DNA of 64,000 nucleotides from Thermodesulfobacteriota bacterium (GCA_040755955.1 JBFMAA010000009.1:1-64000), one strand, 5' to 3'. Numbered from the stretch's first letter, positions 52,938 to 60,661 are shown. The notes: generated by a model not told the origin, from the sequence alone. A program made the numbers and translations.

Positions 52938-53237
52938 CTATTCGATATCAGGCGTGCCTCGGGCCGAGTGCCATATTCGTACTATCTCGATCATCCGGTT
53001 TTCTCGATCAACTCTGTAGACGATCCTGCAGGGTTTCCGAATGATCTCTCGGATAGAGGGATCGCCGAACTCCGGGACTACTCGACCGGACTCCGGATAG
53101 TCCACCAATCGTTCGATGACCTGAAACACGCTCTTCACGAAGCGTCTTGCAGCCAAGCGGTTGTCTTCAGCCACAAAACCTGCAAAGTCCTTGAGATCGA
53201 GCCGAGCCAACCGCGACCAGGTCAGCTCGAAAGCCAT
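52938..53237 (-). CDS. type II toxin, RelE/ParE family
   Basis: 99 aa; LTWSRLARLDLKDF...RIVYRVDRENRMIEIVRIWH matches ParE/RelE fold pattern. Confidence 0.75.
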   Translation of the reverse strand: MAFELTWSRLARLDLKDFAGFVAEDNRLAARRFVKSVFQVIERLVDYPESGRVVPEFGDPSIREIIRKPCRIVYRVDRENRMIEIVRIWHSARGTPDIE

Positions 53238-53407
53238 GTGCTGAACTCCTCACGCACCCTTTCGTGAGCGAGCCCCTTTCCTTCATCGAGGTCCCGGAGG
53301 CCTCTGCGGACACCGGCCACGAAGTGAATACGTTCCAGGATGTCTTCCCACGAAGCGTCTTCCGGGAGGTCCTGGATGGTCCTAAGAGCTGCTTCCTTGC
53401 TTGTCAT
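53222..53407 (-). CDS. antitoxin partner of ParE/RelE toxin
   Basis: 61 aa from ATG 53407; overlaps toxin start by 16 nt; ribbon-helix-helix-like N-terminus. Confidence 0.55.
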   Translation of the reverse strand: MTSKEAALRTIQDLPEDASWEDILERIHFVAGVRRGLRDLDEGKGLAHERVREEFSTWLSS

Positions 53408-53463
53408 GTCTGAACCTCTCTTGTGCCGGCACGCCCATGCCCAGGCAGAAGTGCGGTAGGAGC

Positions 53464-53796
53464 TCACTCCGGCGACTCCGCGGTGTCGACGATGTCGAGA
53501 AGCCCTCTCTTCAGTGCAAGGGCGTCTGCCCCGAGTTGGTCGTCATCCTCCGTGGCGATGCAGTCCCAGCAATCTCCGAAGTCGGACTCGAACGTCTCCA
53601 GCGCCTCTTGGTAGTCTTCTGCGTACCCGGATATGCCGAGAGCGTCGCAGCGGACCTTCCAGAGCCCGTCATCAAACCAAACTTCGACGTCGACAGGTTT
53701 GCGGAGGAGGAACACGCGATGCTCGTGACGGATTCTTTCCCATCGCTGAAATCTCTTCGCATCCCCGGACCGAAAAGTCTCTGTAGCAGTGCTCAC
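53464..53796 (-). CDS. hypothetical acidic protein, HicB-like fold possible
   Basis: 110 aa; ends 3 nt before antitoxin ORF; VEVWFDDGLWKVRCDALGISGYAEDYQEALE resembles HicB/UPF0150 N-domain. Confidence 0.35.
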   Translation of the reverse strand: MSTATETFRSGDAKRFQRWERIRHEHRVFLLRKPVDVEVWFDDGLWKVRCDALGISGYAEDYQEALETFESDFGDCWDCIATEDDDQLGADALALKRGLLDIVDTAESPE

Positions 53797-54213
53797 GACT
53801 GCCTCCTTCGCGGGACGGCCATCTTCTTCGAGAGTATCTCAGTCAGCGCTTGTGTCCACCTGGAGTCAAGGTGCGTATGCACCCAGAGTCTCGGAGTCCT
53901 GGTCAATCAACTCAATCACTGAAACGCCTTCTCGGTGAAAGCCGGTTATCTTCGATGAGCCGTTTTACCTGAGGCCACACCTCTTCATCATACCCGGAGT
54001 CGTCGGCAAACCATTCCTGAAGAAGGCGTCGGGTCGTCGGGCAGCTTCGTTCTTGCTGAGCCGGACATCGTCCGGAGTGTTGGTGGGAGCTGCTCGTGTC
54101 CGCGAAGGAACAGCGGAACCGCCGGCTCCCGAGGGTGCTCGAGAACCAAATTGTGTTTCCACTTCGATGCTCATGGCATTTCCCGTGACAGGTACGGAAA
54201 CCCGGCTTTCGGA

Positions 54214-54969
54214 TCATTCTGGTGATGGGCCCACCTCTTGGGCCTTGTTCCGAGCTGGATTTTCCCTTGCTGACGAAGGACCCGGCAATATCAAGAAATC
54301 ACCTGCTGATGCCTTTCTTGAACCCTCCTCCCAGACATCGGCCCATTTCCCTCCTCTCACATCTTTAGGACACACTTTCCCCTCTCTGATCAACTCCCGG
54401 AGTCGCAAGCCATCCCTGATCAACGAGACCAGGGTCTCACCATCGCCCACCGTTAGTACATCGGATGCGAACGCCGGGGCTTGCGTAAAATGACTCCTAA
54501 TGGTGCTCAGGTATTCCTGGAGTGCGGTTATTGCACCTTCCAACTCTTTGGCCATGATGGGACCTGGGCCTGGGCGCTCGTTCAGGGCAATCTCCCGGTT
54601 GAGGTGCGCGAGCCGGTTGTTGCGGTGCTCCTCAATCTGCTGCCGCTTCTTGAGGATACATTTCCACGTGCCTCGAAGCTTCCGTCCAAGTTCTTCCTGC
54701 CCATTCTTCCCTATTTGGCCGTGGAGTTTCTTGAGTGAGAGTACGTCTTTGTCGTCGTCCGTGAGTCTACACAATGACATGAGAATCTCGGTCTCGAGCG
54801 CGTTCCGGATGCATGAAAAGGCGGCATCACAGCATTCATGCAGCATCTGGAATCGTGACTTGGAGTGGTTGAAAAGCTGATGGTAGGTCTTCCAGTGGAT
54901 CTGCAACCACCAAACCTCCTTCTCCAGTCTTCTGAATATGTCGTCCACGTCTTGGGGAATGTTACCCAT
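54214..54969 (-). CDS. HEPN domain protein (Rx4-6H motif)
   Basis: 251 aa from ATG 54969; HRNNRLAH conforms to HEPN RNase Rx4-6H; all-helical; immediately downstream of methyltransferase on same strand. Confidence 0.5.
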   Translation of the reverse strand: MGNIPQDVDDIFRRLEKEVWWLQIHWKTYHQLFNHSKSRFQMLHECCDAAFSCIRNALETEILMSLCRLTDDDKDVLSLKKLHGQIGKNGQEELGRKLRGTWKCILKKRQQIEEHRNNRLAHLNREIALNERPGPGPIMAKELEGAITALQEYLSTIRSHFTQAPAFASDVLTVGDGETLVSLIRDGLRLRELIREGKVCPKDVRGGKWADVWEEGSRKASAGDFLILPGPSSARENPARNKAQEVGPSPE

Positions 54970-55013
54970 AATTGACTCCTTGTTCCGGGCTACAGCCCTA
55001 ATATCGAGCCACA

Positions 55014-56255
55014 TTAGATCACAATATCTACTAATTTTTCGGCAGTACGTGCACTCTCCAAGTTCTTCCGCCTCGAGATAATCTCTTTCATGATAAGAGA
55101 CGGAGCGTCAACCAGCGTAATTTCCGGAAACATCTGAGACTCGGCAAAGAGCAGACCTTCTTTGTTCGTAATTACTAAGAACAGAATGGCCGCGGACTTG
55201 CCCTTGGCAGCCTTGAACAACAGATTCGCTGCATCGAGTAAACTTTCATGCGGCCGCTGTATTCTCACAAGGATCGGGTGTCCGTTCACGTCATCCCGCA
55301 GGATCGCGTCGATTCCACGGTTTCTCTGGACAGGAACAAATGATATGCCGTCCAGCAGTCTCAAGATTTCCTGATCAGCATTAATATAGGACTCCCTGCC
55401 TTTTTCCAACAGATTGGATTCGGATTTCTCTGGGTTATGCAGTCTGTCCTTCGTGATTTCAACAGCTTCATGAGAAATGTCTATACCTACAGCGCACCGT
55501 CTCAACATATTCGCAGTCACCACAGTTGTGCCACTACCGCAAAACGGGTCAAGCACCAAGTCCCCTTCTCTACTTGCGAGCCTTATGATACGCTCCAGCA
55601 GCAGAATGGGCTTCTGGGTCGGGTACCCGACGCGCTCTTTCGCTTTGGGATTAAGATAGGGAATATCCCATACATCGCAAAGAGGAACCCCCTTCTTTCC
55701 CCCGTTTGGGACTATCTCTCCGGAATCACTCCTTTCATATGCCGACTTTCCGTACTCGTCTCGCTTTCTACGTTGAAGGATTTGATCCACGTTGGTCGAT
55801 GGAGAGTAATCCTCGTAAATTGAGTTGAAGGTATAGCTGTCCGATTTTGTGTAATAGTATACCGTTTGGTGCGCGGGGAGAAGTGACGCCGCAGCATTTG
55901 ACCATCGCCGATAGTGCCAAATGATCTCGCTCCGGAACATGGCCTCCCCGAATATCTCGTCCAGTAGAAGTCTTGCTATGTGTGAGGAGTTTCGATCACA
56001 ATGAAAGAATATTGAGCCGGCTCCCGACAAGACCCTGTACATCTCCAGCAAGCGTACCCTCAGAAAGGCTATGTATTCCTCGTGGGACGCCCAGATATCC
56101 TTGAACGAGAACTCCTTTAGCCTGTCTCTCGTCCTAAGGGAATGCACCTTTTGTGTGAAGAAAGGGGGATCAAGATAGATCAAGTTCGCACTGTCGTTTG
56201 GGAGTGTCTTCAGAATCTCCAGGCAATCACCCTCATATACTTCTGCCCTCATCAT
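55014..56255 (-). CDS. site-specific DNA methyltransferase, beta-class (N6-adenine or N4-cytosine)
   Basis: 413 aa; motif IV DPPF precedes motif I FCGSGTT (beta permutation); C-terminal about 130-aa extension; low-GC gene. Confidence 0.85.
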   Translation of the reverse strand: MMRAEVYEGDCLEILKTLPNDSANLIYLDPPFFTQKVHSLRTRDRLKEFSFKDIWASHEEYIAFLRVRLLEMYRVLSGAGSIFFHCDRNSSHIARLLLDEIFGEAMFRSEIIWHYRRWSNAAASLLPAHQTVYYYTKSDSYTFNSIYEDYSPSTNVDQILQRRKRDEYGKSAYERSDSGEIVPNGGKKGVPLCDVWDIPYLNPKAKERVGYPTQKPILLLERIIRLASREGDLVLDPFCGSGTTVVTANMLRRCAVGIDISHEAVEITKDRLHNPEKSESNLLEKGRESYINADQEILRLLDGISFVPVQRNRGIDAILRDDVNGHPILVRIQRPHESLLDAANLLFKAAKGKSAAILFLVITNKEGLLFAESQMFPEITLVDAPSLIMKEIISRRKNLESARTAEKLVDIVI

Positions 56256-56941
56256 TGCCTTGCCTTCTCCGCTGCGAGTCGTTCCAGGATCGCTCTCAGG
56301 TCTATATCAGTGGTTGTCTGAAGGTATGTCCAAGCTGCGTCTCCAAAATAATAATGACCACCAATCCCCGTGTAGAGCGTCTCAAGGGTCTGCTGGATAC
56401 GGATTGCCTGAGCGAGATTCGGGTAATAGAACATAGCCCTTATTGGGGTAAAGCCAGCCCCCGCTATCACCTTGATCCTGGTGTGTTCCTTCGTAATGTG
56501 GTCGCCATCCGTTGTGGCGTCTCTCCATTTGATCTCAATGGCATCAGTCCCTACCAGACAATCAATTTCAAAGGTTTTCGGCCTCTTGCCTTCAGTATTT
56601 GGTATTCTGACGGCAACTGCTTCAGGAAACCTTTCCTGCAGACACCACTTGCAAACCGTTTCGAGAAACGACCCAGCGTACTTGTACAGAAACCGGCCCT
56701 TGTTCTGGTAGATATCAATGAGACTCCCCTCTTCGTCTGAAACACCCAATACTCGATAGATCAGGTAATGGGAAAGATTGTCGTTGTCCATTTCTGCCAC
56801 GCGGTCGTCAATTTGGCTCCGAAGTCTTCTTGCCAGATCTGCCGCAAACGACCTTATCCTGTCTTCTATGGGACGTTGCGGCATCAATTTCTCGTTCTTC
56901 CTGGTCACGATTCCCCTCGTCCAGTGTGCCACGACTTCCAA
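56252..56941 (-). CDS. type II restriction endonuclease, PD-(D/E)xK fold
   Basis: 229 aa; FEIDCLVGTDAIEIKWR provides D...E-x-K catalytic triad; stop overlaps MTase start (ATGA). Confidence 0.65.
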   Translation of the reverse strand: MEVVAHWTRGIVTRKNEKLMPQRPIEDRIRSFAADLARRLRSQIDDRVAEMDNDNLSHYLIYRVLGVSDEEGSLIDIYQNKGRFLYKYAGSFLETVCKWCLQERFPEAVAVRIPNTEGKRPKTFEIDCLVGTDAIEIKWRDATTDGDHITKEHTRIKVIAGAGFTPIRAMFYYPNLAQAIRIQQTLETLYTGIGGHYYFGDAAWTYLQTTTDIDLRAILERLAAEKARQ

Positions 56942-57134
56942 AGGCTTGGGGGCTGCCTATTAGTCAACGTCTTACCATCAATCCCCTGACAGCGCAAAAT
57001 GATCTCTCAGCACGCCGCCCACTTCGCAAAACACCTGGAATTGTTTTCGCCAGAACCTCTGTCCACACAGAAAACCCTTTGCTGCCCCCGACAGCCTGCT
57101 ACACGATCATGCCTCCAACAAGACCGCACCGTCC

Positions 57135-60100
57135 CTACATATTCCTGCGGTATTGCCCTCCCGCTTGGAACAGGGTCCTGCTGATTTCGCCGAGGGACGC
57201 GTACTTCACGGTTTCCATGAGCTCTTCGAAGATGTTGCCGTTGCTGACCGCCACCTGGTGGAGCCTCCTCAGAGCTGCTTCGGAGTTGCCCTCGTTGCGC
57301 TCCTTGAACTCCGCGAGCCGGTCAAGCTGGGACTGCTTCTCCTCTTCCGTGCCTCGAGCCAGTTCCACGCACAAGAGGCCCGTGTCCGCGCCGTGCGGGT
57401 TGAGGAACGTGTTCACCCCGATGATCGGATACTCCCCGCTGGATTTGAGCGACTCATAGTACAGCGATTCGTCCTGGATCTTGGTTCTCTGGTAGCCGGT
57501 CTCCATGGCTCCCAGGACCCCGCCCCGCTGGGAGATTCGGTCGAACTCCTCGAGCACGGCCTCTTCCACCAGATCCGTCAACTCCTCGAGTATGAAGCTT
57601 CCCTGGTTGGTATTCTCGACCTTGCTGATGCCCCATTCCTTGTTTATGATCAACTGGATCGCCAGGGCACGGCGTACCGACTCTTCGCTCGGCGTGGTGA
57701 TCGCTTCGTCGTACGAGTTGGTGTGCAGCGAGTTGCAGTTGTCGTATATCGCGATCAAGGCCTGAAGCGTGGTCCTTATGTCGTTAAACTGGATCTCCTG
57801 CGCATGAAGCGATCTGCCGCTGGTCTGAATATGGTACTTGAGCTTCTGGGAACGCTCGTTTGCGCCGTATTTTTCTCTCATGGCAACGGCCCAGATGCGT
57901 CTGGCCACCCTCCCGATGACGCTGTACTCGGGTTCGAGGCCGTTGGAGAAGAAAAACGACAGATTCGGAGCGAAATCGTCTACATGCATTCCCCTGGACA
58001 GATAGTACTCCACATATGTGAATCCATTGGCCAGCGTGAACGCAAGCTGGGTGATCGGGTTGGCTCCCGCCTCCGCGATATGATACCCCGAGATCGACAC
58101 CGAGTAGAAATTCCGCACGTCAGTCCTGATGAAGTATTCCTGGATGTCGCCCATGATCTTGAGGGAAAAATCGGTGGAAAAGATACACGTGTTCTGGCCC
58201 TGATCCTCTTTGAGTATGTCCGCCTGGACCGTGCCCCGCACCTGGCTCAACGTCTGCGCCTTGATCGTTGCGGCCTCTTCCTTGGACGGTTCACGGCCCT
58301 TCTCCTGGCGGAACCGCTCCATCTGCTGTTCCACGGCAGTGTTGAAAAACATGGCCAGAATCATCGGCGCGGGCCCGTTGATGGTCATGGATACCGACGT
58401 GTTCGGCGAACAGAGATCAAACCCCGAATAGAGCTCTTTCATGTCGTCCAGGGTGCAGATCGATACCCCCGAAGTGCCGATCTTGCCGTATATGTCCGGC
58501 CTTACTTCAGGATCACGACCGTACAGGGTCACGGAATCGAACGCGGTGGAGAGGCGTTTTGCTTCGTAATTCGCGGACAGGTACTTGAACCGACGATTGG
58601 TTCTGAACGCGTCCCCTTCGCCCGCGAACATTCTGGTGGGATCTTCGTCCGCTCGCTTGAGCGGGAACACTCCCGCTGTGTAGGGAAACATGCCGGGAAG
58701 GTTCTCTTTGAGCCGCCACCTGAGGATCTCACCACGGTCCGTGAACCTCGGAAGCACCACCCGGGGAAGCGAGGTCCCGCTCAGCGTCCGATTGCGCATC
58801 CTGGACCTGAGCTCTCTCCCTCGGACCTTGAACACCAGCTCGTCCCCGGAGTATGTCTGCTTGATATCCTCCCATTCTCCTACCAGCCGCAGCGCCCTCG
58901 GGTCGAGTCGGCGCTCGATGGTCTCCTGAAGATCCTTGATCGACCTCAGCGCCTCCGACTCATGAGTGCCGTCTTCCCTCAGCGCCCTCGATGCTTCGTC
59001 GAGGTGCCAGATCTTGCGGACCAGCTCTTCCTGTTCCTTCCCCCAGGTGTGGTATCTGCGGATCGTGTCCGCGATGTCGGACAGGTACGAGCCGCGCTCC
59101 GCGGGGATGATAATCGTCCGTGACGAGGGCTTCTTATCCGGCCGGGTTTCGAGTCGGGTCGTCCAATTCGCGCCGGTCTTGGCGTTGATCGCCTCGATGA
59201 TGCCCACATAGAGGCTCGTTACCCCGTCATCGTTGAACCTCGATGCGATGGTCCCGTACACCTCGAAGTCCTCGAGCGGCCGGCTGAACTCGAGCCTGTT
59301 TCGCTGGATCTGTTTGCGCACGTCGTGCAGCGCGTCCTCCGAGCCCTTCCGGTCGAACTTGTTCACTGCCACGATGTCCGCGAAGTCGAGCATATCGATC
59401 TTCTCGAGCTGGCTCTGCGCACCAAATTCCGAGGTCATCACGTAAAGCGAGACATCCACCAACGGCACGATGGCCGCATCGCCTTGCCCGATGCCCGCGG
59501 TCTCAGCGATAATCAGGTCGAACCCCGCAGCCCTGAGTACGTCTATGGCTTCTTCCATGTGGCCCGGGATCTCCAGCCCCGCGGCTCGGGTCGCGAGCGA
59601 TCTGTAGTAGACTCGGTCGGTGTTGATCGAATTCATCCTGATACGGTCTCCAAGCAGCGCTCCTCCGGACTTGCGTCTGGTCGGGTCCACTGAGACGACC
59701 CCGACTGTCTTGTCCTTCTGATCGTTGAGGAACCTGAGCACTATCTCATCGGTCAGGGACGACTTGCCTGCGCCGCCTGTTCCCGTGATGCCGAGCACCG
59801 GCACTCTCCTGTCTTGGATCCTGCCTTTCAGGGCTGCCTTGATACGCGGCAGATTGCCGTTTGCAGATTCCTTGGCCACCTCCGCAGCGGTGATCATGTG
59901 TGCGATCAGTTTCCAGTTACGCGGATTGAGCTTCGCCAGGTCCCCGTCGAGGGAACCATCTGCCGTGGGGAAATCCGCGAGTTGCAGGAAATGGTTGATC
60001 ATCCCCTGAAGGCCCATGACGCGGCCGTCGTCCGGGCTGTAGATCTTGGCCACGCCGTGCTCTTCCAGCTCCCTGATCTCGTCAGCTACGATGACGCCTC

Positions 60101-60407
60101 CCCCGCCGCCGAAGACCTTGATATGCGAACACTCGTGCTCTCTGAGCATGTCGACCGCGTACTTGAAGAACTCCATGTGACCGCCCTGATAGCAGCTTAT
60201 CCCTATGGCCTGGGCATCTTCCTGGATGGCTGCGTGGACGATCTCCGCGACGGATCGGTCGTGTCCGAGGTGGATCACTTCCGCACCGGATCCCTGGAGC
60301 ACTCTCCGCATTATGTTGATGGCCGCGTCATGCCCGTCAAAGAGCGACGCGGCGGTGACGACGCGGATGTGATGTGCCGGCTTGTACGGCTCTGTCGGCT
60401 GATTCAT
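57135..60407 (-). CDS. icmF: fused isobutyryl-CoA mutase IcmF (B12-binding domain + MeaB-like G-protein + mutase catalytic domain)
   Basis: 1090 aa from ATG 60407; N-terminal [10 protein letters not shown]12 motif, P-loop [12 protein letters not shown] of MeaB/ArgK, C-terminal MCM TIM-barrel substrate domain. Confidence 0.85.
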
Positions 60408-60661
60408 GGCGGCCCCCTTGGGTATCGGATCCAACGTCGCGCCCCCATCGGGACGGCAACTGTTCACAGCGATCAGTTCTTCCAACCAATAATCAGACCA
60501 CGAAGGCACAAACACACCAAGAAATCATAAGGCAATCTTCTTTGTGTCTTCGTGTCCTTGTGGTGAATCCTTTCTCTATCGGTTTTCCACGAACCTCGCG
60601 GTGAACGATTTCTCGGGAAGGGGAATTCCCGACTTCTCACTTGGCGGCGCGGTCATTGGTG

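Follow-up and report, generated by a model that had tools for sequence, protein, structure and literature searches.

A DNA stretch of 64,000 nucleotides (nt) from a Thermodesulfobacteriota bacterium (GCA_040755955.1 JBFMAA010000009.1:1-64000), called the window below, carries a gene cluster at 52.9-56.9 kb in which all genes lie on the minus strand. The cluster is composed of a Type II restriction-modification (R-M) pair of the ApaLI family, consisting of a restriction endonuclease (REase) and a DNA methyltransferase (MTase), a gene for an AbiU2-family HEPN protein directly behind it, a gene for an acidic protein of 110 amino acids (aa), and a ParE-family toxin with its small partner. In the explanation that we consider likely, a mobile ApaLI-family R-M module has been juxtaposed with an AbiU2/ParE conflict cluster in a defence islet, and no conserved three-gene system was formed. 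All parts are members of known families, and only at this locus, among those compared, does AbiU2 accompany the R-M pair. A scan with one genome per species gave 564 stretches encoding REase relatives, and 80 of these were compared. The REase is immediately followed by the same MTase, in the same orientation, at 79 of these 80 ApaLI-family loci, and an AbiU2 gene was found at none of them (0/80). The open reading frames (ORFs) named in an earlier note on this DNA were all recovered by ORF calling where the note had placed them, on the minus strand. Identical proteins are deposited at NCBI from a Thermodesulfobacteriota metagenome-assembled genome (MAG), where their locus tags run from AB1646_03735 to about 03755.

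The ApaLI-family restriction-modification pair

The REase gene (56252-56884, minus strand) encodes 210 aa from the ATG at 56884. The longest ORF extends over 56252-56941 and the NCBI version has 218 aa. The ATG at 56884 is the likely start, in agreement with the N-termini of the homologues. The match to the Pfam family PF09499 RE_ApaLI was strong (1.5e-90, 302.5 bits, cut-off 25) and full-length, spanning residues 25-212 of the long ORF and model positions 2-189 of 189. The PADLOC model REase_II PDLC03586 was matched at 3.3e-92, and the identical NCBI protein is named 'ApaLI family restriction endonuclease'. The database holds 5585 homologues, many of them with 65-72% identity and from very different phyla. 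No solved relative was found in the PDB search. The earlier note had described a PD-ExK restriction enzyme, and the sequence alignment bore this out: D108, E117, and K119 are invariant in 26 REase sequences, within the motif EIDCLVGxDAIEIKW. By the motif pattern, the assignment of these three as the predicted PD-(D/E)xK catalytic residues stands.

The stop codon of the REase gene overlaps the start codon of the MTase gene in an ATGA, as had been noticed before, and the four shared bases at 56252-56255 read caATGAtg. The MTase ORF (55014-56255, minus strand) encodes 413 aa. Its catalytic core, residues 1-280 (55416-56255, minus strand), is that of a beta-class N6/N4 amino-methyltransferase. It matched PF01555 (7e-52, 177 bits, cut-off 26.7), and the protein matched the PADLOC model MTase_II PDLC03339 at 4e-159 over about positions 3-393 of 399. 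The DPPF motif at residues 29-32 lies upstream of FCGSGTT at about 238-244. This is the beta-class order, and the class proposed in the earlier note is correct. The best solved relatives in the PDB are M.RsrI (4e-20, aligned over residues 9-259), CcrM, and M.MboIIA, and the order of the core motifs is the same in all three. With DPPF as its motif IV and adenine methylases as its nearest relatives of solved structure, the MTase probably modifies adenine (m6A). ApaLI recognises GTGCAC (PMC7653180), and from the family name the same sequence would be the target site of the present pair. One GTGCAC lies inside the MTase gene at 55049-55054. By family membership, the PD-ExK REase would cut unmodified copies of a palindromic site, and the MTase would modify the same site in the host DNA.

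The flanking genes of the ApaLI-family loci differ from genome to genome and are mutually unrelated. The REase and the MTase therefore behave as a mobile module of two genes that is complete in itself. The ten tightly linked downstream genes that were compared are mostly housekeeping genes, including an ABC permease, HypF, MoeA, an aminotransferase, and a flavoprotein. There are also one HigB toxin, one HATPase_c_3 protein, two proteins without a Pfam match, and one with a weak zinc-ribbon match. The HATPase_c_3 protein is encoded in a Verrucomicrobiia MAG (L077:7845-9791). It is a GHKL ATPase protein of 648 aa whose gene starts 20 nt past the methylase gene, and it resembles the MORC-like ATPases reported beside R-M systems.

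The MTase carries about 130 residues beyond its core, which the earlier note had called unexplained. The extension exists (residues 281-413; 55014-55415, minus strand), and it is no peculiarity of this protein, being found in all of the ApaLI-family loci that reach that far (74/74). The partner MTases are 393-435 aa long, except for one truncated copy of 335 aa (L008), and the 413 aa of the present one are typical. The extension gave no match in the Pfam, PDB sequence, or PDB profile searches. Sub-threshold matches to Mrr_cat appeared from 8 of 50 members of the extension family, with a best value of 1.4e-4, and to an inactive-REase family from two. An AlphaFold 2 (AF2) model built on three sequences had a predicted local distance difference test (pLDDT) value of 65, with 70-88 in the core, and its topology was alpha-beta-beta-beta-alpha-beta. 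The alignment behind this model is shallow because the search with the extension alone returned only two short fragments. In domain numbering, D36, Q53, and E57 are invariant and R51 and K73 are nearly invariant, and the canonical (D/E/Q)xK lysine is absent. These weak lines converge, with moderate confidence, on a probable PD-(D/E)xK (Mrr-like) fold. From the same fold evidence, weak as it is, the most likely function of the extension would be DNA binding or assembly rather than cleavage. CcrM also possesses an extra C-terminal domain beyond the core. However, the last 130 residues of the present MTase are unlike the structures of M.RsrI, M.MboIIA, and CcrM and resemble PD-(D/E)xK nucleases.

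Base composition and origin of the pair

The G+C content (GC) was calculated in 1-kb windows over the 64 kb. The mean was 0.583 with a standard deviation (sd) of 0.024, lower than the background of 60-65% that had been supposed. The GC profile was not uniform. A low-GC tract (54500-56950, no strand) with a GC of 0.49-0.50 against 0.583 stretches across the R-M pair into the 5' part of the AbiU2 gene. The only 1-kb windows more than 2 sd below the mean are those of 54501-57000, with a GC of 0.487-0.502. The drop that the earlier note had placed at about 54.2-57.1 kb is thus real and unique in the window, but its onset is near 54.6 kb rather than 54.2 kb. The minimum of 0.44-0.45 was found at 54900-55150, which fits the AT-rich stretch reported around 54960-55120.

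The GC at third codon positions (GC3) was compared among 53 long ORFs (mean 0.683, sd 0.060). The REase (0.559) and the MTase (0.567) showed the two lowest values. With refined coordinates, the values were 0.536 for the REase, 0.565 for the MTase, 0.627 for AbiU2, 0.630 for ParE, 0.659 for the putative antitoxin, and 0.694 for the 110-aa gene. The gene directly upstream of the R-M pair, a fused mutase gene of 1126 aa (57135-60515, minus strand), had the highest GC3 among the neighbourhood genes measured (0.781) and was used as the reference for host composition. By a reading of its translation, with no family search run, the mutase is IcmF-like and comprises a B12-binding domain, a G-protein chaperone, and a mutase. 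The GC3 values of AbiU2, ParE, the antitoxin, and the 110-aa ORF fall inside the host spread. Horizontal acquisition of the whole islet had been claimed, and the composition upholds it for the R-M pair. Within the islet, only the R-M pair stands out clearly as foreign. The AbiU2 gene takes a middle position, as its 5' half shares the low overall GC and its GC3 resembles that of the toxin-antitoxin (TA) genes.

The same kind of offset was observed elsewhere. The R-M module is richer in AT than its flanks in 61 of the 65 other genomes whose loci have enough flank, with a mean difference of 0.09. Since the present pair shows the same offset, its low GC belongs to the module family as such and is no sign of an unusually recent event. 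Over the 65 loci (L002-L081), the GC of the module, which ranges from 0.27 to 0.57, tracks that of the host (r = 0.84). In the favoured explanation, the R-M pair would be a later arrival between a housekeeping gene, that of the IcmF-like mutase, and a small conflict cluster made of AbiU2, the uncharacterised-domain gene, and the ParE TA pair, and its adjacency to AbiU2 would best be read as clustering in a defence islet.

The AbiU2-family gene and the small neighbouring genes

The AbiU2-family gene (54214-54969, minus strand) encodes a protein of 251 aa that is predicted to be an RNase. Residues 21-181 of its 266-codon ORF matched PF18734 HEPN_AbiU2 with 67.4 bits (cut-off 26.8), and the identical NCBI protein and both database relatives carry the precomputed label PF18734. 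The earlier note had pointed to a HEPN protein with an Rx4-6H motif downstream of the MTase gene on the same strand, and it was right in this. The motif HRNNRLAH corresponds to R116-NNRLA-H122 (Rx5H), and H115, R116, N117, R119, and H122 are invariant in a three-sequence alignment. From its sequence the protein can be inferred to be a HEPN RNase with an intact Rx5H site. The AbiU2 domain is the only one detected in it, and no regulatory NTPase domain is fused. It gave no match in PADLOC, NCBIfam, PHROGs, or the PDB, and a fold search with its AF2 model gave no diagnostic match.

The subfamily is rare. Two relatives were found in the database (46% and 37% identity) and one at a metagenome locus, and none in the viral and plasmid scans. 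Its context statistics therefore rest on three relatives. These (P0002, P0003, and L082) lie beside an ABC transporter with DUF445, a pentapeptide-repeat gene, and a gene that is SNase-like by a reading of its translation. No recognisable R-M gene was found beside any of the three, of whose neighbours several carry no family label. The idea that a HEPN toxin rides on the R-M operon as an established arrangement did not hold, since AbiU2 is missing from all 80 ApaLI-family loci and no recognisable R-M gene accompanies its three relatives.

It is unlikely, in our judgement, that the REase, MTase, and AbiU2 genes were acquired as one operon for layered defence, in which the HEPN RNase would be held inactive by the R-M proteins and freed when a phage disables restriction, as in PrrC/EcoprrI. 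The arrangement of the genes is suggestive of it. The AbiU2 gene lies on the same strand and starts 45 nt past the MTase stop codon, and a strong Shine-Dalgarno sequence, AAGGAG, stands 6 nt ahead of its ATG. No terminator was predicted between the two genes in a promoter and terminator scan whose counts were at chance level. In the favoured explanation, too, transcription of the R-M pair probably reads through into AbiU2, given the shared strand, the short gap, and the lack of a predicted terminator. The low GC within the 5' half of the AbiU2 gene is a further argument for a single operon. AbiU2 was listed in R-M operons by Anantharaman et al. in 2013, where a PrrC-like back-up defence was proposed for HEPN genes linked to R-M systems (PMC3710099). 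In addition, the founding lactococcal HEPN protein, AbiUii, is encoded next to the nuclease-like AbiUi (PMC13064643). However, a single operon is hard to reconcile with the absence of AbiU2 from the 80 modules and with the nearest AbiU2 relatives, which are not beside any recognisable R-M system. The GC3 of AbiU2 (0.63) is like that of the TA genes and differs from the 0.54-0.57 of the R-M pair, and AbiU2 has no counterpart of the ABC-ATPase regulatory domain of PrrC. In Lactococcus, moreover, resistance came from AbiUi by itself; AbiUii did not confer resistance but reduced it, and no defence activity of AbiUii on its own is reported (PMC13064643). Consequently, a defence role of AbiU2, even family-wide, is a conjecture. 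Functional coupling of AbiU2 to the R-M system is possible, and in the favoured explanation, too, AbiU2 might act as a growth-arresting back-up.

Some observations also weigh against the juxtaposition of a separate module and conflict cluster. The low GC does not stop at the MTase gene, and windows of 150 nt starting at 54700-54900, inside the 5' half of the AbiU2 gene, have a GC of 0.45-0.51. Co-transfer of the REase, MTase, and AbiU2 genes is therefore conceivable. Flanking direct or inverted repeats, a tRNA gene, and an integrase were looked for at the locus, and no convincing insertion mark was found. The window contains 19 GTGCAC sites against 15.8 +/- 4.2 expected, and as there is no depletion, the site count is uninformative on specificity. 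Both AF2 models, those of the MTase extension and of AbiU2, are of low to moderate confidence.

The end of the AbiU2 gene has features of its own. About 20 C-terminal residues (54214-54280), PGPSSARENPARNKAQEVGPSPE, are extra with respect to the relatives, and it is there that the GC rises back to that of the host. An unannotated spacer of 417 bp (53797-54213) with broken reading frames separates the AbiU2 gene from the 110-aa gene. These two features would suit a state of decay, with AbiU2 and the small neighbours as passengers and the R-M pair alone active. Such decay is very improbable, however, considering that the AbiU2 frame is intact over 251 codons, that all of its motif residues are conserved, and that a strong ribosome-binding site precedes it.

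An ORF of 101 codons (53912-54217, minus strand) lies at the spacer, and its ATG overlaps the AbiU2 stop codon in an ATGA. AbiU2 could be thought of as the toxin of a TA pair with this ORF as its partner, as the overlap suggests translational coupling and HEPN toxins often have adjacent antitoxins (PMC3710099). Its last ~40 residues, LLQEWFADDSGYDEEVWPQVKRLIEDNRLS..., are protein-like, and the remainder is not. However, the ORF has no homologue and no match in Pfam, NCBIfam, PADLOC, or PHROGs. The GC pattern over its codon positions is unusual (GC2, the GC at second codon positions, is 0.56), and Cys, His, Arg, and Ser abound in its N-terminal half, as they do in out-of-frame translations. NCBI annotates nothing there, the locus tags 03740 and 03745 being consecutive, and none of the three AbiU2 relatives has a small gene downstream on the same strand or shares a small partner gene with the others. 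Hence such a TA pair has very little probability. The ORF was set aside both as an antitoxin and as a frameshifted gene, for it has neither a homologue nor a coding signal. It is probably no gene at all or a gene remnant, and the spacer may hold what is left of a small gene. An Rfam search of 52.5-57.4 kb gave chance-level matches only.

Beyond the spacer, the acidic 110-aa protein (53464-53796, minus strand) contains an uncharacterised conserved domain at residues about 20-108. A representative library yielded 412 relatives at E<=1e-3. Some consist of the domain by itself, and in longer ones of 200-380 aa it forms the C-terminal part. Among the long relatives, one has an HNH endonuclease domain and two have an OB-fold domain. 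In 46 members, no Pfam family covers the shared domain. The protein gave no PDB match by sequence or by family profile, and its only PHROGs match was marginal, to a family of unknown function. The label HicB-like, given to it in the earlier note, had to be dropped. The protein matched neither a HicB model nor a solved HicB structure even at E up to 10, and none of the 46 family members matched a HicB model at E<=0.01. No support came from Pfam, NCBIfam, PADLOC, or PDB profiles for the protein or its 45 relatives. HicA was not found in the neighbouring ORFs scanned, and the neighbours are the ParE antitoxin and the unannotated spacer.

The ParE/RelE-family toxin of 99 aa (52938-53237, minus strand) matched PF05016 ParE_toxin (3.7e-20, 72.7 bits, cut-off 23), and its NCBI name is 'type II toxin-antitoxin system RelE/ParE family toxin'. 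The preceding gene (53222-53407, minus strand) encodes a putative antitoxin of 61 aa, so designated by its position and overlap, and its stop codon overlaps the ParE start by 16 nt. NCBI labels the 61-aa form hypothetical. It gave no match in Pfam, NCBIfam, PADLOC, or PHROGs and no meaningful match in the PDB. The TA pair proposed earlier is supported by the toxin family and the small overlapping gene upstream. In two of the 80 ApaLI-family loci (L019:2306-2640 and L033:2942-3384), the R-M module is likewise followed by a same-strand antitoxin and ParE pair. These antitoxins are 35% and 27% identical to that of the window, and the toxins 31% and 30%. The two cases may be due to chance because such pairs are common.

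Comparison with known systems and meaning

The R-M pair resembles the ApaLI system, which is of Type IIP with the site GTGCAC, in its full-length PF09499 match and in the adjoining methylase gene. In the present pair, the partner of the ApaLI-type REase is a beta-class amino-methyltransferase with a C-terminal domain of probable nuclease fold, and the site is a predicted one. The lactococcal AbiU2 (AbiUii) of the HEPN_AbiU2 family and the present HEPN protein have in common PF18734, the Rx4-6H motif, and the adjoining nuclease or R-M genes. However, the two proteins are very distant, and the present one has no AbiUi partner and no PADLOC match. With PrrC-EcoprrI, an anticodon nuclease guarded by a Type I R-M system, the locus shares the placement of a HEPN nuclease gene beside R-M genes. 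It differs in that there is no ABC-ATPase, the system is Type II and not Type Ic, hsd genes do not enclose the HEPN gene, and the linkage is not a conserved one. The small TA pair is like ParDE-type modules in having a small gene that lies ahead of the gene for a ParE-fold toxin and overlaps it, but the 61-aa partner matches no antitoxin family model.

The occurrence of AbiU2 beside restriction operons was already noted in 2013 (PMC3710099). A bolder version of the coupling can be stated for the present locus. AbiU2 would be co-transcribed with and guarded by the ApaLI-type R-M pair, in a minimal Type II form of the PrrC logic, and/or the PD-(D/E)xK-fold domain of the MTase, shared by a very widespread family, would be more than a passive DNA binder, for instance a second nuclease or a partner-sensing control of restriction. 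We regard this as quite doubtful.

The significance of the juxtaposed module and conflict cluster is mostly one of annotation: the locus is a clean example of a small defence islet, here in a Thermodesulfobacteriota MAG, that would have received a two-gene R-M module. The ApaLI-family partner methylases compared all carry the C-terminal domain of probable nuclease fold, for which Pfam offers no separate model and which goes unnamed in the NCBI annotation of this protein. Whether a HEPN gene behind a Type II R-M operon is coupled to it in function is a question for which the AbiU2 gene would make a simple test case.

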